Positions 627 through 33,350 of a stretch of 33,592 nucleotides of DNA are shown piece by piece. The stretch's first letter is position 1. Each line of letters begins with the position of its first letter. Source of the DNA: an uncultured Lentisphaera sp. Lineage in GTDB: Bacteria > Verrucomicrobiota > Lentisphaeria > Victivallales > GWF2-50-93. The stretch covers positions 1 to 33,592 of the forward strand of contig CAZXAC010000002.1 of assembly GCA_964638335.1 (NCBI GenBank), given 5' to 3'. A program made the position numbers and the translations under genes. Below the pieces are notes generated by a model. It saw only the letters and a list, made by a program, of their open reading frames with translations, searched no databases and had not been told where the DNA came from.

Positions 627-3152
627 TCAGCCGTTTGTCTGCTCAGTCCCTTCGCTTGCGGTCCCATCTTCCGCCTTTACTTCGATGACTTTTACGACGC
701 CGGTGATTTTGTCGTCCGAATTAAGGCGCATAATCCTGACTCCCTTTGTTGCCCTGCCTACCAGTCTGATTTCAGAAACTGGAACTCTGACGGTTTGTCC
801 TTTTTCGGTCATGACGAGTATTTCGTCATTTTCTGCTACTTGCAGCGCTGCTATGACGGATTCGCCGTCACGAAGTTTCATGTTTGTGACGCCTTTCGCT
901 CCGCGGCGGGTTTTTCTATATGTGCTGAAGAAGCTTCTCTTGCCCATTCCTCCACTGCTGAGTACCAGTATTTGTGGGCCACCTTTTTCTGCGGCTTCCT
1001 CGTCGGTTTCGGTTTCTTCACTGCTGTCGACCGCTTCCATGCTGATTACGTAATCATCCTTCAATTTGAATTTCATACCTGTTACGCCGGTGGCGGCTCT
1101 GCCCATGGATCTCACATCTTGTTCGTTGAATCTGCAAGCCATTCCCTTTGCGGTGGAGAGGATTATATCTTCAAAACCGTTTGTTATAGCGACCCCTATT
1201 AGGTCGTCTGTTTCTTCGATATTCAGTGCTCTTATACCGGTTTTTCTCAGATTTTTGAATGCTGACAGGACGGTTTTCTTTATGACGCCGTCCTTTGTCG
1301 CCATTACGACATACATATCTTCGCGTTCCAGATCTTTTTCGCTTACCGTGATCATTGCCTTGATGAGTTCGCCAGGTTCCACCTTGATGAGGTTGATTAT
1401 TGCCTTGCCCTTTCCGGTTCTTTGTCCTTCCGGTATTTCGTAGACGTATAGCCAGTACATGGTTCCCTTGTCTGAGAAGAAGAAGATTATGTCATGGCTG
1501 TCAGCGTTGAAAAGGTGTTCGACGTAGTCATCGTCTTTTGTTTCCATTGCTCTTATGCCTTTGCCGCCTTTGTGTTGTACGTCAAATTCCTCGATATTCA
1601 CTCTCTTTATGTATCCGCTTTTAGATACTGTTATCAGGCATGAATGGCGTTGTATCAGGTCGGCTATCTGGAAGTCCGTGCTTGCGTGAGTTATTTCTGT
1701 CCGTCTTGGATTCCCGTATTTTTGTTTTATCTGTTCGAGTTCCGATTTTATCAGATCTATTCTGAGTTGTTTATCGGCGAGGAGAGCTTTTAATTCGGCG
1801 ATTCTCTTCATGAGTTCTTCGAATTCGGCGCGCAGCTCTTCAATTTCGAGACCTGTGAGCTGGTGCAGGCGCATGTCGAGTATTGCGTCGGCCTGTATTT
1901 TGCTAAGATTATATTTCCCGATCAGTGAGATCGAAGCGTCTTCCTTATTCTTAGATTCTCTTATTATTCTCACGACATCGTCTATATTTGTGACGGCGAT
2001 CAACAGTCCTTCCAGGATGTGGGCTCTGGCTTCGGCCTTGTCGAGTTCGAATTTCGCTCTTCTAGTGACAACTTCGAGGCGATGTTCTACGTATGCTTGA
2101 AGTATTTCTTTCAGGTTCATCATCTTTGGGCGTTTTTGATCCACGAGCATCATTCCCGCTCCGAAGACTGTTTCCAGCGCGGTATGCGCGAATAGCTGGT
2201 TCAATACTACGTCCGGGATGAATCCTCTCTTTATTTCTACGACTATCCTTATTCCGGCTCTCTTACTGCTTTCGTCTCTTACGGCGGATATTCCGGTTAT
2301 CTTTTTTTCGTTTACCAGATCTGCGATTTTCGCGATAAGATTTTCTTTATTGACCGCGTATGGAATCTCAGTGAATATTATCTGTTCCCTGTTTTCATTT
2401 TTTGCGATTATTTCGTATTTGGACCTGATCTTTATGCTTCCTCTGCCGGTCTCGTATAGATTTTTTATTTCTCCGATTCCGCAGATCTGCGCCCCGGTGG
2501 GGAAATCGGGTCCGGGAATAAAATGCATAAGTTCAGTTATTGAGATGTCGGGATTTTTCAAAAGCGCAACAGTGGCGTCAATGACTTCGGAGAGATTATG
2601 AGGGGGTATATTCGTTGCCATGCCGACGCCGATTCCGGTGGATCCGTTTACAAGCACATTTGGGAAGGCCGCTGGTAAGACTTCCGGTTCAACGGTCGAT
2701 TCGTCGAAAGTGGGAAGCATCCCAACCGTGTTCTTGTCTATGTCCGCGAGAAGTTCTTCGGCCAGTCTTTCGAGACGACATTCGGTATAACGATATGCCG
2801 CCGGAGGGTCGCCGTCTATACTACCGAAGTTGCCTTGTCCGTCTATCAACGGTTCGCGCATTGAAAAGTCCTGAGCCATTCTGACCAGTGTGTCGTATAC
2901 CGAAGCATCTCCGTGGGGGTGGTAGTTACCGATCACTTCACCGACCACTTTTGCGCTCTTTGTGTATGCGTGTCCTTTGCCGAGACCGAGCTTTTGCATG
3001 GCGTAGAGAATTCTTCTGTTTGCCGGCTTAAGTCCGTCGCGGACATCCGGTATTGCGCGGCCTATGTTGACGCTGAGAGAATACTGCAGATAAGCAGTAT
3101 GCATAATATCTTCAATATTAACGGGATAGTCGTTTCTGTTTATGTCGCTCAT
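627..3152 (-). CDS. gyrA: DNA gyrase subunit A
   Basis: 841-aa ORF. It has the QRDR YHPHGDASVYDTLVRMAQ, the catalytic-Tyr motif AAYRYTECRL, a GyrA-box-like HKGGKG, and repeated beta-pinwheel C-terminal blades with an acidic tail. Confidence 0.97.
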   Translation of the reverse strand: MSDINRNDYPVNIEDIMHTAYLQYSLSVNIGRAIPDVRDGLKPANRRILYAMQKLGLGKGHAYTKSAKVVGEVIGNYHPHGDASVYDTLVRMAQDFSMREPLIDGQGNFGSIDGDPPAAYRYTECRLERLAEELLADIDKNTVGMLPTFDESTVEPEVLPAAFPNVLVNGSTGIGVGMATNIPPHNLSEVIDATVALLKNPDISITELMHFIPGPDFPTGAQICGIGEIKNLYETGRGSIKIRSKYEIIAKNENREQIIFTEIPYAVNKENLIAKIADLVNEKKITGISAVRDESSKRAGIRIVVEIKRGFIPDVVLNQLFAHTALETVFGAGMMLVDQKRPKMMNLKEILQAYVEHRLEVVTRRAKFELDKAEARAHILEGLLIAVTNIDDVVRIIRESKNKEDASISLIGKYNLSKIQADAILDMRLHQLTGLEIEELRAEFEELMKRIAELKALLADKQLRIDLIKSELEQIKQKYGNPRRTEITHASTDFQIADLIQRHSCLITVSKSGYIKRVNIEEFDVQHKGGKGIRAMETKDDDYVEHLFNADSHDIIFFFSDKGTMYWLYVYEIPEGQRTGKGKAIINLIKVEPGELIKAMITVSEKDLEREDMYVVMATKDGVIKKTVLSAFKNLRKTGIRALNIEETDDLIGVAITNGFEDIILSTAKGMACRFNEQDVRSMGRAATGVTGMKFKLKDDYVISMEAVDSSEETETDEEAAEKGGPQILVLSSGGMGKRSFFSTYRKTRRGAKGVTNMKLRDGESVIAALQVAENDEILVMTEKGQTVRVPVSEIRLVGRATKGVRIMRLNSDDKITGVVKVIEVKAEDGTASEGTEQTNG

Positions 3153-3337: not shown

Positions 3338-4189
3338 TCAGGAGAACACAACCGTTCTGCCTTGGAATACTATGATTCTGTTTTCCAGTTGGGCTTTCAG
3401 CGCCCTTGCCAGGACTATGCGTTCGATGTCTTTGCCTATCTGCTTCAATTCTTCGGGGTCGTTTTCGTGGTTGACTCTTTCGACATCCTGTTCTATAATC
3501 GGCCCCTCATCGAGGTCGGCTGTTACATAATGGGCTGTGGCGCCTATCATTTTTACGCCTCTTTCATATGCCTTGCGGTATGGATTTGCGCCTTGGAAAG
3601 CCGGAAGGAACGCATGGTGTATGTTTATTATCCTGCTGGAGTATTTTTGGACGAAATTTTTGCTTAGTATTCTCATGTATTTTGCGAGAACTAGGAGGTC
3701 TATGTGGTTTTTTGACAGCAGTTCGAGCACCTTCTCCTCCTGCGACTCCTTGTCTTCGTTCACAACCGGTACGCAGTAGAACGGCAACCTGAATTGCGTG
3801 GCGACGTATTCGAGGTCCGGGTGATTTGAGATTATTAAAGGAATTTCGCAGGGGAATTCTCCTTCCTTCCAGCGAAGTATTATGTCATACAGGCAATGCG
3901 ATTCCTTTGTCGCGAGTATCGCAATCCTTCTGGTGATATCGGAGTAGTGTGCCGACCATTCAAGAGAGTTTTTTCTTGCGAAATCCGCAAATTCTTTCTC
4001 AAGCTGTTCGCGGGTTGTCTTCATTCCGGCCAGATCAAGTTTCAGTCTCATGAAATATCTTGAGTTGGCGCTATCGGTATGTTGCTGGCAGTTTACGATG
4101 TTAAAGCCCTTATTAAAGAAAAATGACGTTATTTCGCAAACGAGCCCCTTGCGATCTTCGCATTGGATCAGAAACACTACGTTCTTCAT
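3338..4189 (-). CDS. purU: formyltetrahydrofolate deformylase
   Basis: 283 aa. An N-terminal ACT-like domain (VFLIQCEDRKGLVCEITSFF) is followed by a formyltransferase core (INIHHAFLPAFQGANPY, GATAHYVTADLDEGPII). Confidence 0.9.
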   Translation of the reverse strand: MKNVVFLIQCEDRKGLVCEITSFFFNKGFNIVNCQQHTDSANSRYFMRLKLDLAGMKTTREQLEKEFADFARKNSLEWSAHYSDITRRIAILATKESHCLYDIILRWKEGEFPCEIPLIISNHPDLEYVATQFRLPFYCVPVVNEDKESQEEKVLELLSKNHIDLLVLAKYMRILSKNFVQKYSSRIINIHHAFLPAFQGANPYRKAYERGVKMIGATAHYVTADLDEGPIIEQDVERVNHENDPEELKQIGKDIERIVLARALKAQLENRIIVFQGRTVVFS

Positions 4190-4301: not shown

Positions 4302-4898
4302 TTACTTTTCTGCCAGGCTACGGAATTCTTTCATGAAAAACCAGTATCTGATGAATGCCACCAGCGGGATGCTTATCGCGCCGTAGGCAGGTAGAAGTTG
4401 GAACAAGGCTAGAAACAGTACTATCAGTTTCAATAACCACTGCGTGCGTATCCTCCTGCCGAAGGGCAGATACGAAGCAAAAGGATTTATTATCGCCGCC
4501 CTTATGTAAAAAAACCCTATTACGGATCCTATTAGAGGGAAGAAACTTAGCGCGACGCATACCGGTATGGTCTGAAACAAATATCTCTTGTGTATATAGT
4601 TCAGGTAGGAAAAATACTCCGAATCGCCCTTCATAAGCTCATGTCCGCATTTTCCGCATTTTTGCTTGGGACAATTTTCCCTCATGCGATTTTCGCATTC
4701 CGGACATAGTTTTCGCTCGATTCGGGACATTTTTTTTAGATCCGTCTCTTCGCCGTCTTCGATCCATTTGAGAAAGTCTGAACCGAGCTTGCTCATCATG
4801 TGCTTGGATAAAAGTATTATGCTTGTCAATACCGCTGCCAGCAAAATCAACGGAGGGATGAGGTTTTTAATTTGAATATCTGAAAAAAGATTAGACAA
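4302..4898 (-). CDS. hypothetical membrane protein with a central CxxC...CxxC zinc ribbon
   Basis: 198 aa. It has an N-terminal TM segment, then CPECENRMRENCPKQKCGKCGHEL, then 3-4 C-terminal hydrophobic helices. It starts 4 nt after the rsmB-like stop, on the same strand. Confidence 0.6.
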   Translation of the reverse strand: MSNLFSDIQIKNLIPPLILLAAVLTSIILLSKHMMSKLGSDFLKWIEDGEETDLKKMSRIERKLCPECENRMRENCPKQKCGKCGHELMKGDSEYFSYLNYIHKRYLFQTIPVCVALSFFPLIGSVIGFFYIRAAIINPFASYLPFGRRIRTQWLLKLIVLFLALFQLLPAYGAISIPLVAFIRYWFFMKEFRSLAEK

Positions 4899-4901: not shown

Positions 4902-6173
4902 TCAACTCCTTTTAAGTTTTGCCACGAATACGGCGTCGGAATCCATTTCGGATGGGTTTACGTTTAGAATGCCCTCAAATATTTTTCCGCTGATAGGATC
5001 AGGAAATGTGCAGAGTTTGAAGGAAGGATTCGAAGCGGTGAACTCGGATATCACGCCTTCATTCTCCTTTCCGAATACCGAACATGTGGCATATACTAGC
5101 GTCCCGCCGCTTCTGACAGATTGAGAGGTTGCTTCGAGGATCGAGAGCTGATTTTTGTGGAATCTATCTATTTCGCTCTCCTGAGTGCGCCATCTGCCAT
5201 CCGGATTTCGTCTCCATGTGCCTGAGCAGGAGCATGGAGCGTCGACGAGCACACCGTCGAAAAATGACTCATGCCGTTTATCTCTTTTTGAAGCATCGGC
5301 TATTCGTGTACGCACATTGGATAATGAGGCTCTTGCCGTCCTTCTTTTGAGCTCTTCTATTTTTTTTTCGTCAAAGTCTTGGGAAAGGATTGAGCCTTTT
5401 CCGTTCATCATATCTGCCATTTGCAGGGTTTTTCCTCCTGCGCCGGCGCAGGCATCAAGCCACTTTTCCCCTGGCTTAGGGGCGGCAATGAGTCCTATCA
5501 TTTGTGAAGCTATGTCTTGGACCTCGAAGAGGCCGTTTTTGAATTCTGGCATTGAGTAGAGGCTGGTTTCCGATTTTAGAATTTTTACGGCATTTGGGAA
5601 ATTTTCCGGCATATTGAATTTTGCGTTTTGTCTTCTTAGCTCTGAAACTACTTTTTCTCTAGCGCCATTCTTTGTTCTTATCCATATTGGGGGGCGAGTC
5701 TGGAAGCTTTGCGTCAGATCATTAATCTTCAAGGCATCCGAAAGATTTGAAGTGAAGAATCCGGGAAGAAGTTCTTGCTGCTTGAAATTGGAAATGGGGA
5801 GGGAGAATTCCTGGGAAAGTTTTGCTGGCAACTCGCAGAAACTTAGTTTTTCCAAGGACTCATTTATGAAAGAAGCATTATCGAGGGCATTTCCGAGAAG
5901 ATCAGGGAAAGCCGCGAGTTTGCGAATTTCGCATTCCGCTTTGAGGCATTTTTTTATCCATCCCCACCAACGAAAAAGGGAGAAAATACTTTCGCTTATA
6001 AATCTCCTGTCCCTTGATCCGAGAAATTTTCTGGCTCTCAGGGACGAAGACAGGGATCTATCTGCCGGATAGCCGGATGAGAACCTGTCTAGGACCTCTT
6101 TCGCTATTTCATTCCGAGCTTTTTTGATTGCGGAAATCTTGTTTTCCGACAGCTTTGATATATCTTTTGTCAT
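4902..6173 (-). CDS. rsmB: 16S rRNA (cytosine-C5)-methyltransferase, NOL1/NOP2/Sun (RsmB-like) family
   Basis: SAM motif DACAGAGGKT, catalytic motifs DAPCSCSGTWRRNPD and YATCS, and a NusB-like N-terminal region. The track ORF extends to a TTG at 6296, but those 41 extra codons overlap acyP and look like noise. I prefer the ATG at 6173; an ATG at 6221 is also possible. Confidence 0.8.
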   Translation of the reverse strand: MTKDISKLSENKISAIKKARNEIAKEVLDRFSSGYPADRSLSSSLRARKFLGSRDRRFISESIFSLFRWWGWIKKCLKAECEIRKLAAFPDLLGNALDNASFINESLEKLSFCELPAKLSQEFSLPISNFKQQELLPGFFTSNLSDALKINDLTQSFQTRPPIWIRTKNGAREKVVSELRRQNAKFNMPENFPNAVKILKSETSLYSMPEFKNGLFEVQDIASQMIGLIAAPKPGEKWLDACAGAGGKTLQMADMMNGKGSILSQDFDEKKIEELKRRTARASLSNVRTRIADASKRDKRHESFFDGVLVDAPCSCSGTWRRNPDGRWRTQESEIDRFHKNQLSILEATSQSVRSGGTLVYATCSVFGKENEGVISEFTASNPSFKLCTFPDPISGKIFEGILNVNPSEMDSDAVFVAKLKRS

Positions 6174-7071: not shown

Positions 7072-8018
7072 TAAGTCCAAGCGGAGAGCAAATTCTTATA
7101 TCCTGCGGAGATGGTTCGGTGAGTTCCTTCAGGGTGGAGGAACTTCAATCCAAAATATACCAGGCGTGCTTGGAATGTGGTTTCGAGGATTGTTGGCTTT
7201 CCGAGGATCTCGCTCTATCGGTGGAATATTTGATTTTGGGCACAGGAGAGAGAAGGGAATTCTCAATGGAAGAGATCTTCTCTTTCACCTCACGTCTTTT
7301 GGAAGATACCGGGCATCACAACATAGCGCTCCGCTTCAGGAGGAACTGTGGCGTGCTTCAGGCTAGTCATACTTCGCAGATCGAATCGGTACGACTTCTC
7401 ATATCGCAGCGCATCCCGGGGATCGGTCAACGGGATCTGGAAAGGATAGCTTCTCTAGTGTCATCAAGTCTGAAGTCTTTGGGTATTGAAAGGGTGGAAG
7501 AGGATCTTATACTAAGTTTTGCGAAACACTATCTTAGGAATGCCCTTGCCGAAATCGTCCCCAAAGCTGAACTCTCTCCGGATCAAGCAGTTATAATTCT
7601 ATCAAAATCTCAAATAAAAGATATACTAGTGTCTTTCTCCGGAGGTGGGAAATATGTTTCGGGAGGAGTCCTCTCGTTGCATCCGATCAGTAGGCTTTTC
7701 CCTTCTCTGAAGATTTCCATAAGTCTTGCGAGATTCGCTGAAGTCAACTGCCTTTGTCCACCTCTTACCGAGCTTGCTCTTGCTCCGCGTTTTGCGGAAT
7801 TCTCAGAATTTATGTGCGAAGCCAAGACAAAGATTGTCGCTTTGGTGTCTTCAGAGCTTGGTCTTCTTCCTGTTGACATACCGGTTGTGCTAAGGATAAC
7901 GGATTCGATTGAATTCGCTCGGAAATATATGGGTGTGGCATCGGACGAGGATGAGTTCATGCGCGGGATACTGTCCTGCATGAGAGATTTCATCCCCGGC
8001 GAGCTCATAATAAAATAA
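7068..8018 (+). CDS. hypothetical protein with an ATP-cone-like N-terminus, translationally coupled to nrdR
   Basis: 316 aa with an ATGA start/stop overlap with nrdR. The N-terminal ~90 aa (ILISCGDGSVSSFRVEELQSKIYQACLECGF...LSEDLALSVEYL...FSMEEIFSFTSRLLEDTGHHNIALRFRRN) follow the ATP-cone pattern V.krDG....F...ki...i..A......l...la..V.......i..eeI...V...L...g....A..f. I do not recognise the C-terminal ~220 aa. Confidence 0.7.
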   Translation: MISPSGEQILISCGDGSVSSFRVEELQSKIYQACLECGFEDCWLSEDLALSVEYLILGTGERREFSMEEIFSFTSRLLEDTGHHNIALRFRRNCGVLQASHTSQIESVRLLISQRIPGIGQRDLERIASLVSSSLKSLGIERVEEDLILSFAKHYLRNALAEIVPKAELSPDQAVIILSKSQIKDILVSFSGGGKYVSGGVLSLHPISRLFPSLKISISLARFAEVNCLCPPLTELALAPRFAEFSEFMCEAKTKIVALVSSELGLLPVDIPVVLRITDSIEFARKYMGVASDEDEFMRGILSCMRDFIPGELIIK

Positions 8019-12063: not shown

Positions 12064-12828
12064 CTACAAACCGCCAGTCACTTCATAAGTTGAGCCGCTT
12101 ATGTAAGATGCCTCCTTTGAGGCGAGGAAAAGAACCGCGTTTGCAACCTCTTCGGGTTTCCCGAAACGTTTTAAGGGGACTTGATCTCTATAAGCTTTTT
12201 TTTGTTCTTCTGATAGATCTGCTATAAGTTCAGTATCTATGAAGCCGGGAGATACGCAATTCACGGTTATGTTTTTCCTCGCCGCCTCTTTGCAGAGGGA
12301 TTTCGCAAAGGCTTCCTGAGCCGCCTTTGACGAAGCGTAGTTCGCCTGACCCGCGAAACCATATTTGCCAGAGGGAGAACATATATTGATAATCCGTCCA
12401 AATTTTGATTCCATCATCTTCATCAGAGCGAACTTGCTCATGTTAAATGTTCCAGTGATGTTTACATCAAGAACCTTCTTCCAGTCATGAAAACTCATCA
12501 TTCCAACTATCGAGTCCTTCCGGATCCCGGCACAGTTCACAAGAATATCCAAAGAAGCGTGCCCAGAATTGAATTCCTTGAAAAAAATCTCCACTGCATT
12601 GTAGTCTGAGACGTCGAGTTGACGGGTCTTCAGAGGGAAGCCTTTCCAATCCTCAACGAATCGCTCTGCCGAAACGGAGTCTCCTGCGAAAATCGCAGTT
12701 ACCGAGGCTCCAGCTTTCAAAAAAGCCTCACTTATGGAGCGCCCTATGCCGCGCGTGCCACCGGTTACGATTGCGCAAGATCCACTAAAATCAAAATTCG
12801 TATTTTTATTGTCCGGCATGATGACCAT
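12064..12828 (-). CDS. fabG: short-chain dehydrogenase/reductase, 3-oxoacyl-ACP reductase (FabG)-like
   Basis: 254 aa. TGGTRGIGRS Rossmann motif, NCAG, and catalytic YASSKAA (YxxxK). The specific substrate cannot be read from the sequence. Confidence 0.75.
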   Translation of the reverse strand: MVIMPDNKNTNFDFSGSCAIVTGGTRGIGRSISEAFLKAGASVTAIFAGDSVSAERFVEDWKGFPLKTRQLDVSDYNAVEIFFKEFNSGHASLDILVNCAGIRKDSIVGMMSFHDWKKVLDVNITGTFNMSKFALMKMMESKFGRIINICSPSGKYGFAGQANYASSKAAQEAFAKSLCKEAARKNITVNCVSPGFIDTELIADLSEEQKKAYRDQVPLKRFGKPEEVANAVLFLASKEASYISGSTYEVTGGL

Positions 12829-15926: not shown

Positions 15927-15937
15927 GCGAAATTCGC
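15927..15937. repeat. intergenic copy of the iterated interrupted palindrome TGCGA-N3-TCGCA (exact GCGAAATTCGC)
   Basis: aTGCGAAATTCGCAa lies between the flavoprotein stop (15892) and the GH13 start (15965). It is one of at least 19 GCGA-N3-TCGC sites in the window (see findings). Confidence 0.8.
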
Positions 15938-18779: not shown

Positions 18780-20084
18780 TCAATTCCATTCTGTCGGTTG
18801 CCCTGTTGATGCTATAACAGTTCCCCAAAGCCTTTCCCCAAAGACATTGATTTGTTTTTTTCTGCCGTGTATTGCGGAAAGCGGAACGTGAGTGAAGTAT
18901 CCGTTGCAAAAACCTATCAGCATGTCGGTCTTCCCTGACATCCCGGCATGAACCGCGAATCTCGCAAGATCCGAACAGAAAATACTGTCATCCCCGCTGG
19001 CTGGAACACTTCTTATAATGTAACTCGGATCGAAGTATTTTATATTTATCTTGATCCCAAGCTCTCCGAAAAATTTCTTGATTTCATCCTTGAGAAAATT
19101 GCCTATGTCCTTGTGTATGGTATTGCCACCAGCATCTTTTATGTCTCCTTTGCCGATCAGGTGTGTGCCAGCTCCTTCGGCTATCACTATCACAGCGTGG
19201 TTCTTGCTGGAAAAACGTTTTTTAAGATCATCTAGTAGACCTCCCTTTCCGTATAGGGGAAACTTTATCTCCGGAATAAGACAATAATTGACATTCCCAG
19301 AAGCCTTGGTGGCGTAGGCGGCAATATATCCGGCATCCCTTCCCATCAGTTTTACAAGTCCTATGCAGTTGTCTGCACCTTTTGCCTCAACGTGCGCACA
19401 GTCCAAAACCTTTTTTGCCTCCTCTATAGACGTATGGAAACCAAAGCTCCTTTCAACATGGAATATATCGTTGTCAATAGTCTTCGGAACCCCGATTACT
19501 GATATCTGCAGATTTCTCTTTTGAATTTCTTCGTATATTTTGTGAGCTCCGCGCAATGTACCATCACCGCCAATGCAAAAAAGTATGTCAACTTTCATTT
19601 TGACAAGCGTGTCAACCATCTCTTCAACCGGAGGATTCCCCCTTGCTGTCCCCAGAAAAGAACCTCCCTTCTCTTGTATTTCAGATAAAGTCTCTGGGTT
19701 CAGGTGCAATGGTTTGTATTTAGTGTCTTTGGCGAGACCTGAGTATCCGTATCTTATGCCTAGGATATTTTTTACGTCATACCAGTAGAAAAGAGAAGTA
19801 ACAATTCCCCATATGACGTCGTTTAATCCAGGGCACAACCCTCCGCATGTTACGATTGCCGCTTTTGTATTCTCCGGCTTAAAGAAAACTTTCTCCCTCG
19901 CACCTGCAAGCTCGAAAGATATGTCTTCATCCTTTTTTACTTTGAGACCTTTTATCAAGTTTGAAGGGAGCTCATACTTATCAGAAGTGAAAGGCATCTT
20001 CTTCCCAGGCGGAAGTTTTACGTGTTTCAGAATCGGCGAGATGTACTTAGCCGGTTTAAACTGTTTTATCTTCAGCTTTCCCAT
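18780..20084 (-). CDS. pfk: 6-phosphofructokinase (long, about 430-aa clade)
   Basis: 434 aa with GGLCPGLNDVI, CIGGDGTLRGA, VPKTIDNDI and MGRDAGYIA. A GGAGG RBS lies 5 nt upstream of the ATG. Confidence 0.92.
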   Translation of the reverse strand: MGKLKIKQFKPAKYISPILKHVKLPPGKKMPFTSDKYELPSNLIKGLKVKKDEDISFELAGAREKVFFKPENTKAAIVTCGGLCPGLNDVIWGIVTSLFYWYDVKNILGIRYGYSGLAKDTKYKPLHLNPETLSEIQEKGGSFLGTARGNPPVEEMVDTLVKMKVDILFCIGGDGTLRGAHKIYEEIQKRNLQISVIGVPKTIDNDIFHVERSFGFHTSIEEAKKVLDCAHVEAKGADNCIGLVKLMGRDAGYIAAYATKASGNVNYCLIPEIKFPLYGKGGLLDDLKKRFSSKNHAVIVIAEGAGTHLIGKGDIKDAGGNTIHKDIGNFLKDEIKKFFGELGIKINIKYFDPSYIIRSVPASGDDSIFCSDLARFAVHAGMSGKTDMLIGFCNGYFTHVPLSAIHGRKKQINVFGERLWGTVIASTGQPTEWN

Positions 20085-20288: not shown

Positions 20289-21653
20289 CTATATGTCTAT
20301 CGCATTATCGGTCATATCCTTGTCCCAGTTGTCCATTAGGAAATCATCTTGAATCCCATCGGCGATCAGCCTGAATGCGTATCTTACTTGTTCTTCGTAG
20401 AATTCGCAAAAGGCTCCGCGCTTGTCCATGCCTCCATTCATTGTGTGCGCCTCCGCCGGACATGGAGAGCCGCAAAAATTTCTTATCGCGCAATCTTTGC
20501 AAAACTTAATGTTTTCAACCATCCTGCCAGTTATGTCTTGGAAAGGCTTTGAAGAAAGAATTTTAGGAATTTTATCCTCGAAGATGTTGCCTCCTTTGAA
20601 CTCTGGGACCCCTATGAATTCACTGCATGGAAATACATCTCCGGATGCCGCCACGGCGAAAAAGCACCTTCCTCCTCCACAGGGTGATATGTCGCACATA
20701 AGTTTTCTGCCGGATGGAGCGAGAATAGCAAGAAGAATATTTGCGAAATTCGCTACGACTATCTTCCTTCCTGTTTTTAGATAAAGATCTCTGCTCCTGT
20801 CAAGAGCCCGTATGAAGTGTTCAGCGTTCTTCTTCTCATCTGGTTTTATTGTCCGTGAAAGCGGCTGGGTGCATCTGATTGTGTTCAGAAGGCATGTCCG
20901 GACCCCATTTTCATGAAAGAATTCAACGGTCGAGGACAGGCAATCCATGTTAAGCGACGACATAGTGCAAATAACGCTCAAACCTTCGTAAGCGGAAAAT
21001 TTATCAAGCGTTTTGCAGACTTCCGAGAATGTCCCTTTGCCGGACCATTTTTTTCGGCTTTTGTCAGATACTTTCGATGAAGGCCCATCCATGGACAATC
21101 CTATCATCACTCCATTATCTTTGATGAAACGAACATCATCGTCATCTAGTAAAGTGCCGTTGCTTTGAATTCCAAATAAAAAATCACTTCCAAATTTACT
21201 TATGATATTGAACATAGCCTCTTTGTTGACAGTTGGCTCTGCTCCGTGAAATATAATCTGCGCCTTCCTCCCCTTTGGAAGTGTCAATTTGAAGAAATCT
21301 CTTATTCTCGACATGGCATCATACATCTTGGCTTCGCTCATATTCCTGCCGTTGCGCCTCATCTTTTCCGGGATGTAACAGTACTTGCAGTTTAAATTGC
21401 ATCTGTCGGTGGGATTGAAATACACCGCCGAAGGCTTGAGGTTGAAACGCAAATCATTCATTTCCTTTCGGTAGTCTGCGATTTTCGCTGAAAAAGACTT
21501 TGACAGCTTGGAGTCGAAGAGATGTTTTCCTAGATCGTTTTTTTCAACTAAAGCCCAAAACGCTGAGTCGGGTTCTATCACTGCGCAGTACTTCTTATGA
21601 GATATGTCTAGTGGAAGAAGCCGCGGATTTTCGCCAGTATTAAAATTTTTCAT
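20289..21653 (-). CDS. radical SAM/SPASM-domain enzyme (peptide-maturase / anSME-like)
   Basis: 454 aa. The CNLNCKYCY radical SAM cluster lies about 85 aa from the N-terminus. C-terminal auxiliary-cluster cysteines (CDISPCGGGRCFFAVAASGDVFPCSEF...CKDCAIRNFCGSPCPAEA...CEF) are typical of SPASM/twitch domains. Confidence 0.9.
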   Translation of the reverse strand: MKNFNTGENPRLLPLDISHKKYCAVIEPDSAFWALVEKNDLGKHLFDSKLSKSFSAKIADYRKEMNDLRFNLKPSAVYFNPTDRCNLNCKYCYIPEKMRRNGRNMSEAKMYDAMSRIRDFFKLTLPKGRKAQIIFHGAEPTVNKEAMFNIISKFGSDFLFGIQSNGTLLDDDDVRFIKDNGVMIGLSMDGPSSKVSDKSRKKWSGKGTFSEVCKTLDKFSAYEGLSVICTMSSLNMDCLSSTVEFFHENGVRTCLLNTIRCTQPLSRTIKPDEKKNAEHFIRALDRSRDLYLKTGRKIVVANFANILLAILAPSGRKLMCDISPCGGGRCFFAVAASGDVFPCSEFIGVPEFKGGNIFEDKIPKILSSKPFQDITGRMVENIKFCKDCAIRNFCGSPCPAEAHTMNGGMDKRGAFCEFYEEQVRYAFRLIADGIQDDFLMDNWDKDMTDNAIDI

Positions 21654-21912: not shown

Positions 21913-21936
21913 TTTTCCTTCAGATCCCAGTTTTTT

Positions 21937-22135: not shown

Positions 22136-22141
22136 GGACAT

Positions 22142-22169
22142 AATCTAAATCAGTGCCCCAAAAAGTCAA
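22142..22169 (-). promoter_or_regulatory. sigma70-like promoter candidate (TTGACT-16 nt-TAGATT) driving the riboswitch
   Basis: On the minus strand, TTGACT sits at 22169-22164 and TAGATT at 22147-22142. The predicted start near 22135 coincides with the 5' strand of P1. Confidence 0.5.
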
Positions 22170-22266
22170 GATAAGAAAAACAAAAGCCAGAAATACTGTT
22201 GGATTCAAAAAATATATACAATTTGTCCGGTGATACATTGCCTAAAATATTTATTTTTTCAGTCGA

Positions 22267-22365
22267 GCCGATTGCAAAATTGCCGTTGGAACGCCGGTCT
22301 CATGACCGGCTTAAGAGCCAGCCATAAGGCTGGCGGTCCTTTTAAAAGGCGATTTTGCAATCGGC
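22267..22365 (+). ncRNA. candidate structured RNA (three-way junction, unknown class) upstream of radC
   Basis: The 18-bp closing helix pairs GCCGAUUGCAAAAUUGCC (22267-22284) with GGCGAUUUUGCAAUCGGC (22348-22365). It has one U-G wobble that would be an A-C mismatch on the other strand, which favours the plus strand. Two 7-bp hairpins lie inside: GCCGGUC-UCAU-GACCGGC (22293-22310) and GCCAGCC-AUAA-GGCUGGC (22317-22334). A U5 run follows at 22373-22377. Confidence 0.4.
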
Positions 22366-24580: not shown

Positions 24581-25260
24581 GAAGGATAAAAGAAAAAAGA
24601 ATCTCTAAATCCGCGAAATTCGCAGTATCAGAACTCTTCACAAGCATACAGGGAGAATCTTCATACGCAGGCCGCATATGCTTTTTCATACGCCTCGCCG
24701 GATGCAACTTAAATTGCTCCTGGTGTGATACCGAATATGCGAGAAGTAAAATTAAACCCAATCTGACAATACATGAAATCATTAGAAACGCTGAACTCTC
24801 TGGAGCAAAGATTGTGGAAATAACCGGCGGAGAGCCGCTTGTGCATGATGGTGTATTCGATTTATGCGCAGAACTTATAAAAAAAGGATTCGAAGTCCTC
24901 GTGGAAACTAATGGCAGCATATCCATAAAAGCCCTCCCAAGGCAGGTGAAAGTGATAATGGACTGCAAATGTCCTTCAAGCGGAGAATCCTCAAAAATGC
25001 TATTTAAAAATTTCAAACTATTGAATAAGAAGGATGAAGTGAAATTTGTGATAGCCGACCGAATCGATTATGATTATTCTAATAAGATATTAAAAAAATA
25101 TTCTCTTTTGAATAAGACGAAAAAAGTGTTCTTTTGTCCAGTGGCAAATCTATTGAGACCGAAAAAACTCGCCGGATGGATGATAGAGGATAAATGTCCT
25201 GCGATCTTCGCAGTGCAACTGCATAAGATAATATGGGGAAAAGATGCGAAAGGAAGATAA
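24577..25260 (+). CDS. queE: 7-carboxy-7-deazaguanine synthase (radical SAM)
   Basis: 227 aa. FTSIQGESSYAGRICFFIRLAGCNLNCSWCDTEY carries the QueE CX14CX2C-type cluster context. It overlaps queD by 4 nt. Confidence 0.92.
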   Translation: MRRIKEKRISKSAKFAVSELFTSIQGESSYAGRICFFIRLAGCNLNCSWCDTEYARSKIKPNLTIHEIIRNAELSGAKIVEITGGEPLVHDGVFDLCAELIKKGFEVLVETNGSISIKALPRQVKVIMDCKCPSSGESSKMLFKNFKLLNKKDEVKFVIADRIDYDYSNKILKKYSLLNKTKKVFFCPVANLLRPKKLAGWMIEDKCPAIFAVQLHKIIWGKDAKGR

Positions 25261-25927: not shown

Positions 25928-27047
25928 TCTGCTTCACTATTTCGTCTATCGCTTCCACGGTTTTTCTTATTTCATCTTCAGTGTTTTCATGACCGATTGA
26001 TATCCTTATTGAAGAATGGAGGAATTCGATAGGGACTTTCATCGCCTTGAGCACGTGAGATGTTTTTGTAAGCCCAGCACACGCCGAACCGCTTGAAACG
26101 CATATTCCTTTCATGTCGAGCCTCGTAAGCAAGGCCTCCGATGCTACGTCCCTGAACCCGATATTCAGAGTGCTGCATACGCTATTTTTCAGGTCTGTGT
26201 TCACCCTGATTCCATCTATCTTTTTTTGAATAAGAGCCAAGAGAAGTTGGCGTAGTCTTTCGCATTTAGACATTCTATCGGTCAGTTCTTTCCTCGCAAG
26301 TTCGCAGGCTTTGCCGAATCCTACCAAAGCGGGGACATTTTCAGTGCCTGCTCTAAGCCTTCTTTCTTGGGACCCTCCGAATATGAGGGCTGAAATCTTC
26401 AGTCCTTTTCTGATGAAGAGAGCACCTGCGCCTTTGGGACCGTAAAATTTATGCGAGGAGATGGAGAGCATGTCAACTCCGAGCTCCCTCACGTCTAGTT
26501 TTATTTTCCCGGCAGCTTGGACGGCATCACTGTGAATCAAAATCTTTGCCTCCCTTGCGAATTTCGCAATATCGGCAATTGGCTGTATCGCTCCAGTCTC
26601 ATTATTGGCTGTCATCACGCTTATAAGCCCAGTATCAGAACTTGCGAATTTCGCAATTGAGCTGGCATCCACAATACAATCCTTGTCGTTAGGCAGATAT
26701 TTTGTCCTTATACCGCGATTGGAGAGATTCTTGCACACGGAAAGAACTGCGCTGTGCTCAATCTCCGAGCTTAGTATTTCATTTTTTCCGGAACTCTCAA
26801 TTCCACGAATTATAGCTTGGTTGTTGGCTTCCGTTCCGCCGGATGTGAATACGATTTCTTCTGGAGACGCGTTTATGAGCGAAGCTACCTGCTCGCGGGT
26901 CCTTTCAATCGCGAAATTCGCATCCCTCCCTGCTGAATGCGCGCTGGAAGGATTGCCGAACTTATCTGATAAAAACGGAAGCATCGCGTCAAATGCCTCT
27001 TTCGAACATGGAGTGGTCGCATTATGATCTAGGTATATGGGCTTCAT
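25908..27047 (-). CDS. cysteine desulfurase (NifS/IscS class, PLP-dependent)
   Basis: 379 aa. SSHKFYGPKG is the PLP-lysine motif and SSGSACA is the catalytic Cys loop. Its 3' end overlaps the queC 3' end by 20 nt (convergent). Confidence 0.9.
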   Translation of the reverse strand: MKPIYLDHNATTPCSKEAFDAMLPFLSDKFGNPSSAHSAGRDANFAIERTREQVASLINASPEEIVFTSGGTEANNQAIIRGIESSGKNEILSSEIEHSAVLSVCKNLSNRGIRTKYLPNDKDCIVDASSIAKFASSDTGLISVMTANNETGAIQPIADIAKFAREAKILIHSDAVQAAGKIKLDVRELGVDMLSISSHKFYGPKGAGALFIRKGLKISALIFGGSQERRLRAGTENVPALVGFGKACELARKELTDRMSKCERLRQLLLALIQKKIDGIRVNTDLKNSVCSTLNIGFRDVASEALLTRLDMKGICVSSGSACAGLTKTSHVLKAMKVPIEFLHSSIRISIGHENTEDEIRKTVEAIDEIVKQIRKSGF

Positions 27048-28765: not shown

Positions 28766-30775
28766 ATGGGCTTTCTTGATTTAGAAATACTATGGCATTT
28801 GCTCTGGATGCTACCCCTTGTCCTTTTGGCTATCAAGTACGCGGGCAGTAGAAGGTCAAATGCAATGGCTCTTGTCCTGGGACCAAGAAAAGATTCTCCT
28901 GAATGCCATACTTTGAACCCAAAGGCGCGGATGCTAAGAAATATCTTGTTGATTTCCGGACTTTGTCTTGCCGTTGTAGCTGTCGCGCGACCCAGTTGGG
29001 GAAAAAAAATATTGCCCTTCACCAGTTCCGGACGAGATATCGTGCTTGTGGTAGATGTATCCAAAAGCATGCTTGCAACGGACATACAGCCTTCAAGAAT
29101 AGAACACACCAAGTGGCTTTTGAGAGAGGTCATATCATCTTGCGGGGGAGACAGATTTGGTTTGGTGGCTTTCTCAGGCATGGCATTTTTGGAATGTCCT
29201 CTTACGATAGATAAAACGACTTTGTTTCAGGCGATAGATGAACTTAAGCCGGGTTACATCCCGCTTGGTGGCACAAACATGCAAAAGGCGCTTGAGACCG
29301 CACTGAAATCCTTTGATGCCGCTGAAGGCGGGCACAGGGCTATCTTGCTCATAGGTGATGGTGATGAATTGCAAGGAGATACAAGCTCCATCCTTGACAA
29401 GCTTAAGGAGTCGGGAATTCCGATATTTGTTGTGGGGGTTGGTAACCCGGATCAAAAAGTCCCTATATCGGTGAAAGGCGAGGGAGGAGAGACTACATTT
29501 TTGCGAGATTCGCAAGGCGAGATTGCAAGCTCCAAGCTGAACGAAGATCTCTTGGCGAAGATAGCTGTTTCCTCAGGCGGAATATATGTACGCTCAACAT
29601 CAGTGGAGCCCGGTTTGAAAGAAATTCTTCCAAGGATCAAAGCCCTTTCTCAAGAAAAATATTCTTCGGGTCAAAACACCAGGCCAGTGGAAAAATTTCA
29701 GATTCCGTTAGCCATCGCGGTAATTATTCTTCTTTCAAGGCTTGCGATAAGCGAAAGACGAAAGCCGATGAATCTTGCGATCGGAATATTAATATTGCTC
29801 TTCCCGAACTTTTGCCCAGGAGCGCCAGAAGCTGATGAAAACATTAAAACCTATAGACCGGAAAAGGTTCAGGACTTGAAAACTGAGAATAGCGGCAAGA
29901 AAGATCCAAGAAAGATGTACAACGAAGGCTTTGATAAACACTCAAAAAACGAATTGGATTCCGCTTCTCAGCTTTATCAGAATGCGGCTGGAAGCAGTCT
30001 GTCTGATGTCGAAACAAGAAAAAAATCATTTCAGAATTTGGGCGCTATTGAACATTCAAAGGGACGTGAAATTATAAATTCAGATCCGCATAAGGCGATG
30101 GAGTTTTTTAAATCTGCTGAAAATATGTACAGAGAATCTATGAAGGAAGATTTTAATTCTCGGGACGTATCTGAAAATCAGCAGATATTGTTGAAGGACA
30201 TGGAAAAAGCCAAAAAAGCTATTGAAAAGCAAAAAGAACAGCAGGAAAAAAAGGACAAGGCCCGTAAGGAACTTGAGAAAGCGGCGCAGGAAAACAAAGA
30301 GGCTAGCAATAATCCCGGAAACCAAAAAGAAAAAGAACAGGCGAAATCTCAGACGGAAAAGGCCAAAGATGCCATGGAGCAACATATGAATCAAACCCCC
30401 GATGAAGACAAAAATGAGAAAGATAAAACGGGAAAAGCCAAGTCGGAGATAAAAAACGCCATGGATGAGCAGAAGAAAGGCGATTTTGATAAGGCTCAGG
30501 AACACCTTGAAAAAGCCTTGAAGGAATTTTCTAAGAATGAAAAAAACGATAAGGACGAAAAACAACAAGAAAAACAGCCTGAAAAGCGAAAATCGGATGA
30601 AGAGCAGAAGAAGGCGGGCGCTGATAAAAAACCAGAAGAAGAGAAGAATATAGACCCTGAACAGGCTGCTTCTATTCTAGATTTAATGGCGCAAGATGAA
30701 AATAAGCTGAGAGAAGAACTCAAGAACAGAGTTCAGGAGAATTCCAAGATAAAAGAAGTGGATAAGGATTGGTGA
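28766..30775 (+). CDS. BatB-like aerotolerance protein: N-terminal TM, vWA domain, TM, TPR-like region and KE-rich tail
   Basis: 669 aa. DIVLVVDVSKSM is the MIDAS DxSxS motif. FGLVAFSG and LIGDGDE are also present. A second TM segment (IPLAIAVIILL) is followed by a helical-repeat and KE-rich region. Confidence 0.75.
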   Translation: MGFLDLEILWHLLWMLPLVLLAIKYAGSRRSNAMALVLGPRKDSPECHTLNPKARMLRNILLISGLCLAVVAVARPSWGKKILPFTSSGRDIVLVVDVSKSMLATDIQPSRIEHTKWLLREVISSCGGDRFGLVAFSGMAFLECPLTIDKTTLFQAIDELKPGYIPLGGTNMQKALETALKSFDAAEGGHRAILLIGDGDELQGDTSSILDKLKESGIPIFVVGVGNPDQKVPISVKGEGGETTFLRDSQGEIASSKLNEDLLAKIAVSSGGIYVRSTSVEPGLKEILPRIKALSQEKYSSGQNTRPVEKFQIPLAIAVIILLSRLAISERRKPMNLAIGILILLFPNFCPGAPEADENIKTYRPEKVQDLKTENSGKKDPRKMYNEGFDKHSKNELDSASQLYQNAAGSSLSDVETRKKSFQNLGAIEHSKGREIINSDPHKAMEFFKSAENMYRESMKEDFNSRDVSENQQILLKDMEKAKKAIEKQKEQQEKKDKARKELEKAAQENKEASNNPGNQKEKEQAKSQTEKAKDAMEQHMNQTPDEDKNEKDKTGKAKSEIKNAMDEQKKGDFDKAQEHLEKALKEFSKNEKNDKDEKQQEKQPEKRKSDEEQKKAGADKKPEEEKNIDPEQAASILDLMAQDENKLREELKNRVQENSKIKEVDKDW

Positions 30776-30812: not shown

Positions 30813-33350
30813 ATGAAAAAATTATTATATAAAATTAATTTGATTGTCTTCGCGTCCTTGTCGGGATTTGCGATTTTCGCGGCTGACCCTGAACTTAGAG
30901 TCAGTCCTGATCCGCTTGTGAAGGGAGGAAATGGGGAAATTAATATAAGCAGTTCTCAAGGGCTTCCAGAATTACTTGAAATGCCGGACGTGGACGGAAT
31001 CAGATGGCTTGGTAGGAGGGGGCAGTCTTCAAAGACGGAAATAATAAATTTCAAGACCAGTACACAACACACGGTATCATATGGTTTCTCTGTAGAAAAA
31101 GAAGGCGACATAAAATTCCCCGCATTGAAATTGAAGCTTGGAAACAAAAAGGTAGCCTGCGATCCTTTTACCGTTAAATCAATAACACCAAGTGTAGGCA
31201 CTTTGTCATCGTCTGATTCAGAAGAAGGTCTTGAAAAATATATTTTCGCGAAAGTTTTCCCGTTAACCGATAAAAATGAATTCTATTTGGGAGAAGAAAT
31301 CCCTTTTGAGATAGCCGTATTTTGTGGAAATGGAATAAGGACGGAATATTCTTGGCCTGAAATAAACGTTCCCAACATCGTATTTAAAGATTTCGGACAG
31401 GTCAACAAAGATAATCCCAAATTCGCAGGCTTCAGCACAACGACGGAAAATCTGTCAGGCAAGAGTTTCAACACGTATAGGTTTCGCACGACCTTCAAGG
31501 CTATAACTCCCGGAACGCTTTCTGGTACCGTGACTGTGCCTTGTCGAATTTTCCTGCCAAGGAGCCGGGAGCAAAGGCGTAGGCCTTCCGGTTTCGGGGA
31601 TTCGTTCTTTGACAGTTTTTTTGATGATGCGTTTTCAAGTTACGAAAGGGTTGATCATACGATCTCGTGCGATATGCCTAATTTGCGCATAGTTCCTCTT
31701 CCTGAAAAACCGGCGAACTCTATTTTTACCGGTCTTGTTGGAGATTGGAAATTCTCTTTCAGGCTTTCATCAAGTAAATTCAATTTGGGAGAAAGCTTCA
31801 TACTGAAGATTGAGCTGGAAGGGAAAGGAGGAATGGACAATCTTAGAGCGCCAGAATTATCTATAGAGGGATTCAGAATTTATCCGCCTGAGATAAGGAG
31901 GTTCTCATCTCCTTCGGAAATCGTCGAAAAAGCTTCTGTCGAATATGTGATTGTTCCTTTGGAGGAGGGTGAGGCCTCGCTGGACGTATCATTGTTGAGT
32001 TTCTCCTCAAGCAAAAAAGAATATGAAAAATGGACTTTTGCCAGAAAAATAACAGTGGGGAAAGCTGAAAATATCTCAAAACCTTCCGTAATGCTCGGGA
32101 CGGAAACAATTCGGAGGTCAGAGGAGCCTGATAAGAAAACGCCAGATACCATGTCAGATATATTGTATCTTAAAAGAAATTCATACGGATCCGTGTCAAC
32201 GCCAGTCTGGACAAACAACTTATACTTCGCCATAATCGTATTTTTTGTTGGTCCTTTTTTTCTTCTTATATCCAAAATTGTCTTTATTTTTTTCAGAGGC
32301 TCAGACAGCGTTGGGAATAGGAAGTCAAAAGCTATAAAAAGAAAGAAGTACATTATGGGAAAAATCAGAAAACTAAACGGTGAAACTTCGAACGTATTTA
32401 TAAGAGATGAGCTTTGCCCTTGGTTGAACGATGTCAAAGGTTACCCGCCAGGCACAAGCGCCGAAGAGATTGCAGAAAAAATTGACGATAAGGAACTTGC
32501 TGAACTTATTTCGAACTCAGCCAAAGGAGCTTATATGCCGGAACCTCACAATAAAGATGATGAGAACGTTAGAAAAATCCTATCGAATGGGGTGAAAAGG
32601 ATTGTCGGAGCGATCGTAATCGCCCTTGTCATGTTCTCAAATTTATTGTCTGCCCAGGATGTATCGACAACGGCGCTTAATAAAGATCCTTTCCAGTTAT
32701 ATGACGCGGGAATGTTCCAAGAGGCCGGAGCGGCTTTTGCGGAACAACTCTCAAAGAGCCCCAACGATCCGTATTTGCTTTACAACATCGGATGCTGCTC
32801 ATATAGGTATGGAAGACTGTCGGAAGCCCTTTACTTTTTTGAGAAGGCCAATATGCTGGCCCCGAGGGACAGCGATATCAGGGAGAATATGAATCACACT
32901 AGGAGAAAACTGAACATTCCGGAAAAAGGCTTGACCGATAACCCAAAAGAATTGCTCCTACGCCTTAGAGATACTTTCAGACCTGATGAATGGATCCTAA
33001 TATTTTCAATTTTTTCTTCGTCCGCATTGGTGGTTCTCGCGATAAGGAAAAGAATATCATACGATAAATTGTGTGTGATTTTGCTGTTCTGCTCCACCTG
33101 CGTTGCAATAGCGGTCCTTGCAATTTTTTCCCAGTTGACCGGAGATTACAACTCTGATGCAGGAATCGTCGTAAGGCGTGGAAGCGCTTTGTTTATATTG
33201 CCGTCAGAGAATTCAGAAAAGACCGAGATTCGCCCCTTTGAAGGACAAAGGGTGAAAGTTGTAGAGGAAAGAAGCGACTGGAGCATAATCAGGCTGGAAT
33301 CTGGAGAGGGTTGGACTAGGAAGGAGAATGTCAGAAAATTCTGGGAATGA
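30813..33350 (+). CDS. BatD-like oxygen-tolerance protein fused to a BatE-like TPR and SH3 module
   Basis: The track ORF starts at a TTG at 30798; I prefer the ATG at 30813 (MKKLLYKINLIVFASLSGFAIFA signal). About 460 aa of BatD-like beta-rich region are followed by a TM segment, then TPR repeats (QLYDAGMFQEAGAAFAEQL...LLYNIGCCSYRYGRLSEALYFFEKA). Two more TM segments follow, then an SH3b-like end (GQRVKVVEERSDWSIIRLESGEGWTRKENV). Confidence 0.75.
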   Translation: MKKLLYKINLIVFASLSGFAIFAADPELRVSPDPLVKGGNGEINISSSQGLPELLEMPDVDGIRWLGRRGQSSKTEIINFKTSTQHTVSYGFSVEKEGDIKFPALKLKLGNKKVACDPFTVKSITPSVGTLSSSDSEEGLEKYIFAKVFPLTDKNEFYLGEEIPFEIAVFCGNGIRTEYSWPEINVPNIVFKDFGQVNKDNPKFAGFSTTTENLSGKSFNTYRFRTTFKAITPGTLSGTVTVPCRIFLPRSREQRRRPSGFGDSFFDSFFDDAFSSYERVDHTISCDMPNLRIVPLPEKPANSIFTGLVGDWKFSFRLSSSKFNLGESFILKIELEGKGGMDNLRAPELSIEGFRIYPPEIRRFSSPSEIVEKASVEYVIVPLEEGEASLDVSLLSFSSSKKEYEKWTFARKITVGKAENISKPSVMLGTETIRRSEEPDKKTPDTMSDILYLKRNSYGSVSTPVWTNNLYFAIIVFFVGPFFLLISKIVFIFFRGSDSVGNRKSKAIKRKKYIMGKIRKLNGETSNVFIRDELCPWLNDVKGYPPGTSAEEIAEKIDDKELAELISNSAKGAYMPEPHNKDDENVRKILSNGVKRIVGAIVIALVMFSNLLSAQDVSTTALNKDPFQLYDAGMFQEAGAAFAEQLSKSPNDPYLLYNIGCCSYRYGRLSEALYFFEKANMLAPRDSDIRENMNHTRRKLNIPEKGLTDNPKELLLRLRDTFRPDEWILIFSIFSSSALVVLAIRKRISYDKLCVILLFCSTCVAIAVLAIFSQLTGDYNSDAGIVVRRGSALFILPSENSEKTEIRPFEGQRVKVVEERSDWSIIRLESGEGWTRKENVRKFWE

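Follow-up and report, generated by a model that had tools for sequence, protein, structure and literature searches.

Introduction

The highly iterated palindrome HIP1 (GCGATCGC) of cyanobacteria exceeds the copy number expected from base composition by 15- to 300-fold. Its distribution is periodic at 10–90 kb. Transformation reportedly increases 7- to more than 100-fold with HIP1, the occurrence of which is also reported to follow that of DNA-uptake genes, and proposals for its origin comprise selection with a role in chromosome structure, a repair ratchet, and a methylation-dependent enhancement of transformation. Here, we analyze a stretch of 33,592 nt from an uncultured Lentisphaera sp. (GenBank assembly GCA_964638335.1, contig CAZXAC010000002.1, positions 1–33,592 of the forward strand), referred to as the window, in which an earlier note made from the sequence had pointed out the interrupted palindrome GCGANNNTCGC and had likened it to HIP1. 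The signal formed by this word is real, very strong, and hitherto undescribed, with HIP1 as its nearest known counterpart.

The analogy holds in several respects. Both words are palindromic and GC-rich, exceed expectation by tens to hundreds of fold (~31-fold in the window), occur within and between genes in all reading frames, are conserved between genomes, including at shared orthologous sites, and are softer at their outer positions than in the core. Moreover, the half-sites are identical to the extended TGCGA/TCGCA of HIP1 in Acaryochloris and others. The two words differ in that a 3-bp A/T-rich gap separates the half-sites here, and hence GATC and CGATCG, the targets of HIP1 methylases, are missing. 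The present word is thus not an ungapped palindrome, and HIP1 itself occurs 0 times in the window. Further, the host belongs to the Lentisphaerota instead of the cyanobacteria, and one-mismatch variants, which are common for HIP1, are not enriched here.

The uptake signal sequence (USS) of Haemophilus and the DNA uptake sequence (DUS) of Neisseria occur about once per 1–2 kb with an exact core, are tolerated in genes by amino-acid accommodation, and are clade-specific, all of which they share with the present word. In contrast, USS and DUS lack symmetry and go with a competence that has been demonstrated, whereas the word described here is symmetric. A dyad of the same 5-N3-5 layout is matS (GTGAC-N3-GTCAC), which, like the Noc and SlmA sites, is a palindromic site of a dimeric protein and lies scattered in genes. 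However, the sites of matS/MatP, Noc, and SlmA number tens per genome, are confined to regions of the chromosome, and are ~100 times rarer than the present word.

Lrp-like feast/famine regulatory proteins (FFRPs) bind sites of the form abcdeWWWe'd'c'b'a', the centre of which is not contacted but is required for bending (Yokoyama 2009, PMC2715240). Centres of the type AAT/ATT and AAA/TTT are preferred; a single G/C is tolerated, while more are essentially absent (PMC2715240). For the Lrp-family mutant FL10[T36S], SELEX yielded the optimum TGCGAWWWTCGCA (PMC2715240), which equals the geometry of the present word. Both are 13-bp dyads with 5-bp half-sites, an A/T-rich centre, and a weaker preference at position −1. 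In contrast to Lrp, which uses a few phased promoter boxes per regulon, the present sites are mostly genic and would, by extrapolation, number thousands per genome. By analogy, the relation thus appears to be one of strong resemblance, not of membership. In the literature searched, the motif strings GCGANNNTCGC, TGCGANNNTCGCA, and GCGAN3TCGC were not found, nor was any paper tying Lentisphaerae to over-represented palindromes.

A gapped palindrome is over-represented in the window

The window contains exactly 19 copies of GCGANNNTCGC, that is, one per ~1.8 kb, while dinucleotide-preserving shuffles yield 0.62 copies on average and never more than 2 (observed/expected ~31). The earlier note had put the count at no fewer than 19 and the expectation well below one copy, and both figures stand. 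Among gapped palindromes of the window, GCGANNNTCGC ranks first. Enrichment is restricted to a spacer of 3 nt: the same two tetramers at any other spacer within 0–11 nt give 0–2 sites each, and the reversed order TCGC..GCGA is not enriched in the window.

The word is sharply defined. In 153 kb of pooled carrier DNA, comprising nine core Lentisphaerota loci, the exact word occurs 72 times versus 3.4 expected (~21-fold), while each of the 12 one-mismatch classes remains at background, with observed/expected ratios of 0.2–2.3; the window itself holds 12 one-mismatch variants. Isolated half-sites are not enriched, and it is therefore the complete dyad that is read. The sites are spaced nearly at random (coefficient of variation 0.77), without significant regular spacing or helical phasing. 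About 85% of the sites lie within genes, and the 15% that are intergenic compare with 14% non-coding DNA, which leaves neither an intergenic excess nor an indication of an operator role.

The 19 sites of the window are listed below. Of the start positions given earlier, 17 are exact and two were typing errors (4152 for 4151 and 5932 for 5922); the seven copies reported as GCGAAWTTCGC are correct.

2323..2333, GCGATTTTCGC, in gyrA (− strand gene), read as I-A-K-I-A; the orthologous codon keeps the site in L003, L004, and L005
3912..3922, GCGAGTATCGC, in a purU-like gene, A-I-L-A
4151..4161, GCGATCTTCGC, in the purU-like gene, C-E-D-R register
4686..4696, GCGATTTTCGC, in a 198-aa open reading frame (ORF) without family match, C-E-N-R
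5922..5932, GCGAATTTCGC, in an rsmB-like gene, C-E-I-R
7728..7738, GCGAGATTCGC, in a 316-aa ORF, A-R-F-A
12686..12696, GCGAAAATCGC, in a fabG-like SDR gene, A-I-F-A
15927..15937, ATGCGAAATTCGCAA, the sole intergenic site of the window, in the gap between a flavodoxin-like gene and a GH13 gene
17160..17170, GCGAGATTCGC, in the GH13 gene, C-E-I-R
18955..18965, GCGAATCTCGC, in pfk, A-R-F-A
20743..20753, GCGAAATTCGC, in a radical-SAM/SPASM gene, A-N-F-A
21478..21488, GCGATTTTCGC, in a radical-SAM/SPASM gene, A-K-I-A
24613..24623, GCGAAATTCGC, in a queE-like gene, A-K-F-A
25201..25211, GCGATCTTCGC, in a queE-like gene, A-I-F-A
26557..26567, GCGAATTTCGC, in a cysteine desulfurase gene, A-K-F-A; orthologous site in L207, one mismatch off in L206
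26644..26654, GCGAATTTCGC, in a cysteine desulfurase gene, A-K-F-A; orthologous site in L204, one mismatch off in L206, L207, and L208
26911..26921, GCGAAATTCGC, in a cysteine desulfurase gene, A-N-F-A; specific to the window lineage
29503..29513, GCGAGATTCGC, in a VWA/BatB-like gene, L-R-D-S register
30870..30880, GCGATTTTCGC, in a BatD-like gene, A-I-F-A

The motif spans 13–15 bp around an A/T-rich centre

The consensus of 51 pooled sites reads Y-T-GCGA-[A>T>G]-W-[T>A>C]-TCGC-A-R. The motif thereby extends to yTGCGA-WWW-TCGCAr, 13–15 bp in length, with weaker preferences at positions −1 and −2. In the window, T precedes the core in 15 of the 19 sites and A follows it in 13. The earlier statement that most sites are flanked by T...A is borne out for single flanks, since every site carries at least one of the two bases; both together are found in only 9 of 19.

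The spacer had been described as N3, which is right for its length but not for its bases. WWW fills the spacer in 68% of 74 sites compared to 18% of controls flanking GCGA or TCGC, and spacers with two or three G/C make up 3% of sites versus 45% of controls (p ~1e-16). One G/C is tolerated, whereas two occur in 2 of the 74 sites and three in none. The bias persists in genomes of 55–57% GC, in which WWW accounts for 52% of spacers versus 10% in controls.

The word is neither a peptide nor a codon-usage effect

The motif is a DNA-level word. Twelve sites of the window encode A-x-[FIL]-A, five C-E-x-R, and one L-R-D-S, one is intergenic, and genes of both strands are affected; this agrees with the earlier account of at least three registers, a majority of Ala-x-Phe/Ile/Leu-Ala, and one intergenic copy at 15927. 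Two checks that the earlier note had called for, codon shuffling and inspection of GCG, TTC, and ATC preference, both leave the excess unaccounted for and support its view of a signal in the DNA. When synonymous codons are shuffled within each gene, so that every protein stays the same, 2.63 ± 1.50 sites result (at most 9 over 1000 shuffles) compared to the 18 coding sites observed, and codon permutation gives 0.42. Among codons of the window that lie outside the motif, only 27% of those for Ala are GCG and 22% of those for Ile are ATC.

Occupancy of the positions at which the encoded peptide permits the motif leads to the same conclusion. The window proteins offer 36 such positions, a modest excess over the 22.6 ± 4.8 in shuffled proteins; the motif is used at 18 of them and, in the main register, at 13 of 17. 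In L204, a relative with 35% GC, GCG (11%), TTC (27%), and ATC (14%) are minority codons, yet 8 of 11 permitted positions are occupied. The word occupies 40–80% of the peptide-permitted positions and is kept against codon preference. A codon or peptide artefact is ruled out by the two kinds of shuffle, the permitted-position occupancy, and the codon tables.

In highly expressed translation genes, the word is apparently not kept. In the block of ribosomal-protein genes, tuf, and nusG of L204 (L204:11388-21158), none of five permitted positions is used, compared to the 8 of 11 in the adjoining metabolic genes, and the syntenic block of L208 holds one site in 11 kb. As a separate observation on codon usage, ATA makes up 55% of the isoleucine codons over all coding sequences of the window, which is an unusual preference.

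The word is spread over a clade of Lentisphaerota

The GyrA protein of the window is identical to that of the metagenome-assembled genome (MAG) GCA_035399925.1. Relatives were gathered by a GyrA-based scan with one genome per species, which delivered Lentisphaerota loci that all adjoin gyrA. Contigs unlinked to gyrA were gathered through cysteine desulfurase homologues. The carriers are as follows.

L005, 8 sites vs 0.01 expected, 32% GC, top-ranked gapped palindrome
L012, 9 sites vs 0.82 expected, 57% GC, top-ranked gapped palindrome
L003, 5 sites in 8.7 kb vs 0.43 expected, 57% GC, top-ranked gapped palindrome
L008, 5 sites in 15.3 kb vs 0.30 expected, ranked second after the overlapping TGCGN5CGCA
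L004, 3 sites in 5.5 kb vs 0.17 expected
L204, unlinked to gyrA, same MAG as L005, 8 sites vs 0.11 expected
L206, unlinked to gyrA, same MAG as L003, 6 sites vs 0.56 expected
L207, unlinked to gyrA, Logan assembly, 9 sites vs 0.28 expected

In five of these loci (L005, L204, L207, L012, and L206), the excess amounts to ~11- to 800-fold. The window carries about one exact copy per 1.8 kb, a density like that of uptake sequences, and the word is also present on L204 and L206, which are unlinked to gyrA. Most Victivallales and Lentisphaerales loci sampled hold 0–1 copies in 22 kb. Non-carriers include GWF2_45_14 (L007), L010, L011, and L013. The comparison with related genomes that the earlier note had suggested thus reveals a strong excess in L003, L005, L008, L012, L204, L206, and L207, and its idea of a lineage-specific element is upheld: in the window and in its closest relatives, no gapped palindrome ranks above the word, and the majority of the other Lentisphaerota sampled are without it. 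A neighbour-joining tree of GyrA resolves the carrier clade as (L009, L008, (L006, (L005, (window, (L003, L004))))), with L012 placed near it on poorly resolved branches.

A metagenome scan for two copies 60–90 bp apart returned at least 120 matches. Among the matches listed, none overlaps the window, 116 non-array loci contain 138 further sites versus 21.5 expected, and those of 30–50% GC contain 83 further sites versus 3.8 expected. Also among the matches listed are pairs on five large contigs of sample Ga0209417, one per contig; two of these contigs were assigned to the Lentisphaerae MAGs GWF2_49_21 and GWF2_50_93. At a locus of GWF2_49_21 that was chosen without bias, enrichment is weaker (2 sites vs 0.20 expected). 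The word is spread over unlinked contigs in a Lentisphaerota clade, its density varies by lineage, and it is kept across a range of 32–57% GC.

A different word was observed in L066 (Lentisphaeria CB6_AW.108, 58% GC), where GCGGNNNCCGC occurs in 12 copies versus 2.2 expected, including three GCGGASTCCGC; it may be another iterated palindrome, one that belongs to a sister lineage.

Orthologous sites are shared between genomes

Residues 274–277 of GyrA read K-K-I-A in almost all Lentisphaerota, while the window, L003, L004, and L005 read A-K-I-A. The codons for A-K-I-A are GCG AAA ATC GC[A/G] and form the motif in all four genomes (32–57% GC), the flanking synonymous positions of which vary; in L006, the site is one mismatch away. 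By sequence comparison, the gyrA site arose via a Lys-to-Ala change relative to other Lentisphaerota. Analogously, all four sites in RhaA, ARMT1, and a ROK-like gene are common to two or three genomes (35%, 39%, and 57% GC). In CysD, sites are shared pairwise while the other genomes are one mismatch off, and at a variable position a Cys or Arg codon has been introduced that completes a site. These shared sites fit long-term retention, and parallel gain at permitted peptides would be compatible with them as well. Because the word nearly saturates the permitted peptides, sharing of orthologous sites does not separate selection from parallel gain.

Arrays occur on a small plasmid and on unrelated replicons

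The motif forms an array on L133 (and L153), a 4203-bp circular rolling-circle replicon with Rep_1. Positions 2704–3402 hold 26 copies of CTGCGAAGTTCGCAA, phased with an alternating spacing of 23 and 32 bp, and five dispersed copies with varied A/T-rich spacers bring the total to 31. This plasmid lends circumstantial support to a dyad that is read by a protein.

Additional tandem arrays with 33–84-bp units, each with a palindrome of the TTGCGA-N3-TCGCAA type, were seen on L183/L220, L188, L123, L213, L124, L141, L180, and L108. These contigs are unrelated and often high in GC or viral, and the arrays have an operator-, iteron-, or centromere-like appearance. Of 14 pair matches on viral contigs, only that on L215 looks host-like; other matches, for example those on L213 and L220, are arrays that resemble operators or centromeres. 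L215 (IMGVR_UViG_3300037087_000031; 40% GC) carries four dispersed TTGCGAAATTCGCA in 8.5 kb versus 0.03 expected and may represent a phage or prophage whose host is a carrier.

Search for a reader protein or methyltransferase

All 26 ORFs of the window were scanned against Pfam and the unknowns additionally against NCBIfam. A cognate methyltransferase, Vsr-like, or HNH gene, for which the earlier note had advised to look, is not among them: the 26 ORFs include no DNA methyltransferase, restriction enzyme, Vsr, or HNH gene and no nuclease candidate, and the window holds housekeeping genes of an ordinary kind. A regular-expression screen for methylase motifs in 458 ORFs of carrier-like loci retrieved one true 5-methylcytosine (m5C) methylase, on L149. 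There, the m5C DNA methyltransferase (L149:6289-8436) lies beside a HindVP-type endonuclease that is split into two ORFs, with Cas3 and Cas5 genes nearby. It was rejected as the cognate enzyme since it pairs with this HindVP-type (GRCGYC) endonuclease. The word also fails as a restriction-modification target, for which a free spacer and a word avoided or neutral in the host would be expected; the spacer is strongly biased and the word ~31-fold enriched.

A tblastn search for Lrp/AsnC proteins over all loci collected, among them ~150 kb of carrier DNA, found a sole gene, L207:11040-11588. For the present word, contact residues of the type Ser34/Glu35/Ser36/Thr-Ala37/Arg39 are expected in an Lrp-family protein. 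The AsnC-family protein of L207 carries Y24, N34, T35, K36, I37, and E39, which do not fit the published code for TGCGA, and it is an unlikely candidate for the reader. Genes beside intergenic clusters in the metagenome loci were inspected for clues and turned out to be housekeeping genes or unknowns; most of these clusters consist of tandem repeats on replicons that are unrelated.

Other features of the window

Two further elements were noted in the window.

21925–22148, cobalamin riboswitch on the − strand with a 63-bit match to Rfam RF00174, upstream of the radical-SAM/SPASM gene (20289–21653)
22263–22335, two-hairpin element of ~75 nt (CCGGTC..GACCGG and GCCAGCC..GGCTGGC), upstream of radC

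The element upstream of radC finds no match in Rfam. Another contig from the same ENA study holds a copy with 94.5% identity (L145:3-75), and the element may represent a small RNA or an intergenic repeat.

Discussion

The word is best explained as neither a gene regulator, nor a peptide motif, nor a mobile element. We tentatively favour, at a little below an even chance, a word of the HIP1/USS class, the dyad of which would be recognised by a DNA-binding protein that is abundant, clade-specific, and a symmetric dimer. Of the three mechanisms offered by the earlier note, namely a methylation/repair bias, a DNA-binding protein, and an uptake/recombination signal, the second is favoured by the biased spacer and by the arrays of the small plasmid. 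Also in line with it are the excess and sharpness of the word, its DNA-level nature, its restriction to a clade, the shared orthologous sites, and its disuse in translation genes. A symmetric word with strict half-sites of 4–5 bp, softer outer positions, and an A/T-rich centre is what is expected of a symmetric dimer that bends its dyad. Such a dimer would contact the two 5-bp half-sites and would need the 3-bp centre to be bendable, a geometry known from sites of the Lrp/AsnC (FFRP) type. Either weak selection for occupancy, for instance in nucleoid organisation or in the marking of own DNA, or a drive linked to the reader would favour new copies. Several observations weigh against this reading. 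No reader protein was identified in the carrier loci examined, and the only Lrp/AsnC gene found there has contact residues that do not fit the published code. The sites are mostly genic without intergenic enrichment, unlike those of ordinary Lrp regulons, their spacing is near random, and a halo of graded near-sites is missing, which makes the word sharper than most protein-binding motifs. Further, the 4.2-kb plasmid has no host link, and, since the metagenome scan was directed at the pattern itself, many of the arrays that it picked up are tandem repeats of replicons with no relation to the carriers.

Among the other explanations, a DNA-uptake or recombination signal similar to USS/DUS, copies of which would be spread as molecular drive by preferential uptake followed by recombination, is unlikely but to be taken seriously. 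Density, sharpness, occupancy of all frames, and amino-acid changes all match USS/DUS, the reported effect of HIP1 on transformation and its co-variation with uptake genes point the same way, a small plasmid with 31 copies would profit from preferential uptake, and an A/T-rich centre could aid kinking of the DNA; a secretin gene in L290 is a very weak hint. However, known uptake words are asymmetric, we know of no documented competence in Lentisphaerota, no competence genes are linked to the motif in the loci examined, and disuse in translation genes is not specifically predicted by uptake. The word could also be functionless, as the by-product of a sequence-specific methyltransferase together with biased mismatch or very-short-patch repair (Elhai's ratchet), which we regard as improbable but still as a serious contender. 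This ratchet was proposed for cyanobacteria, where HIP words co-occur with cognate methyltransferases; the present word begins and ends in GC, as the model requires, its transition-type near-sites are ~2-fold over background, and efficient conversion would be compatible with the absent halo. Against the ratchet stands the A/T-biased spacer, to which an enzyme with an N3 gap would be expected to be indifferent, as do the lack of GATC and CGATCG in the word, the lack of a DNA methyltransferase, Vsr, or HNH gene in the window, the assignment of the sole m5C methylase of a carrier-like contig to the HindVP-type enzyme, and the persistence of orthologous sites over deep divergence.

Remnants of a small mobile repeat, such as a repetitive extragenic palindrome (REP) or a miniature inverted-repeat transposable element (MITE), or an RNA hairpin signal are very improbable. 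The palindrome could fold into a 5-bp stem with a 3-nt loop, but this stem is presumably too short to be stable, in-frame sites lie within conserved genes at orthologous codons, and isolated half-sites are not enriched. Membership in REP or MITE families, which calls for conserved sequence past the core and for an intergenic location, failed, as conservation stops at ±2 and intergenic excess is absent. Finally, the idea that codon usage and a common Ala-x-Phe/Ile-Ala peptide would produce the sites without any DNA-level signal retains next to no credibility. Two thirds of the sites are in the A-x-[FIL]-A register and permitted peptides are modestly more common than in shuffled proteins; however, protein-preserving shuffles fall far short of the observed sites (2.6 vs 18), three registers and an intergenic site are in use, the required codons are in the minority in the 35%-GC relative, and the enrichment is at spacer 3 alone.

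Short DNA words are seldom hyper-abundant, and what such words are for is mostly unsettled; ~30 years of work on HIP1 have not produced a firm function. An independent case in another phylum, with the same half-sites in a gapped, A/T-centred dyad, offers a natural comparison. Any general explanation of HIP words must do without GATC/CGATCG methylation targets and must account for a spacer constraint of the type seen with bending dimers. The carrier range of 32–57% GC makes the strength of the maintaining force measurable and, because the trait is clade-restricted, the reader protein could be identified directly by phylogenetic profiling of publicly available MAGs. In practice, the word can also serve as a marker in binning and in tracing the plasmids and phages of this uncultured group to their hosts.

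A bolder version of the favoured reading, to which we give quite a small chance, is that the word constitutes an independent second HIP system outside the cyanobacteria, in which a chromatin-like dimer of the Lrp/FFRP type or similar would read exact TGCGA-WWW-TCGCA dyads by the thousand, either as a scaffold encoded in the sequence or to barcode the cell's own DNA. If this were true, readers of one protein family may be at work in both phyla, given the shared 5-nt half-site, which would provide a handle on the HIP1 puzzle.

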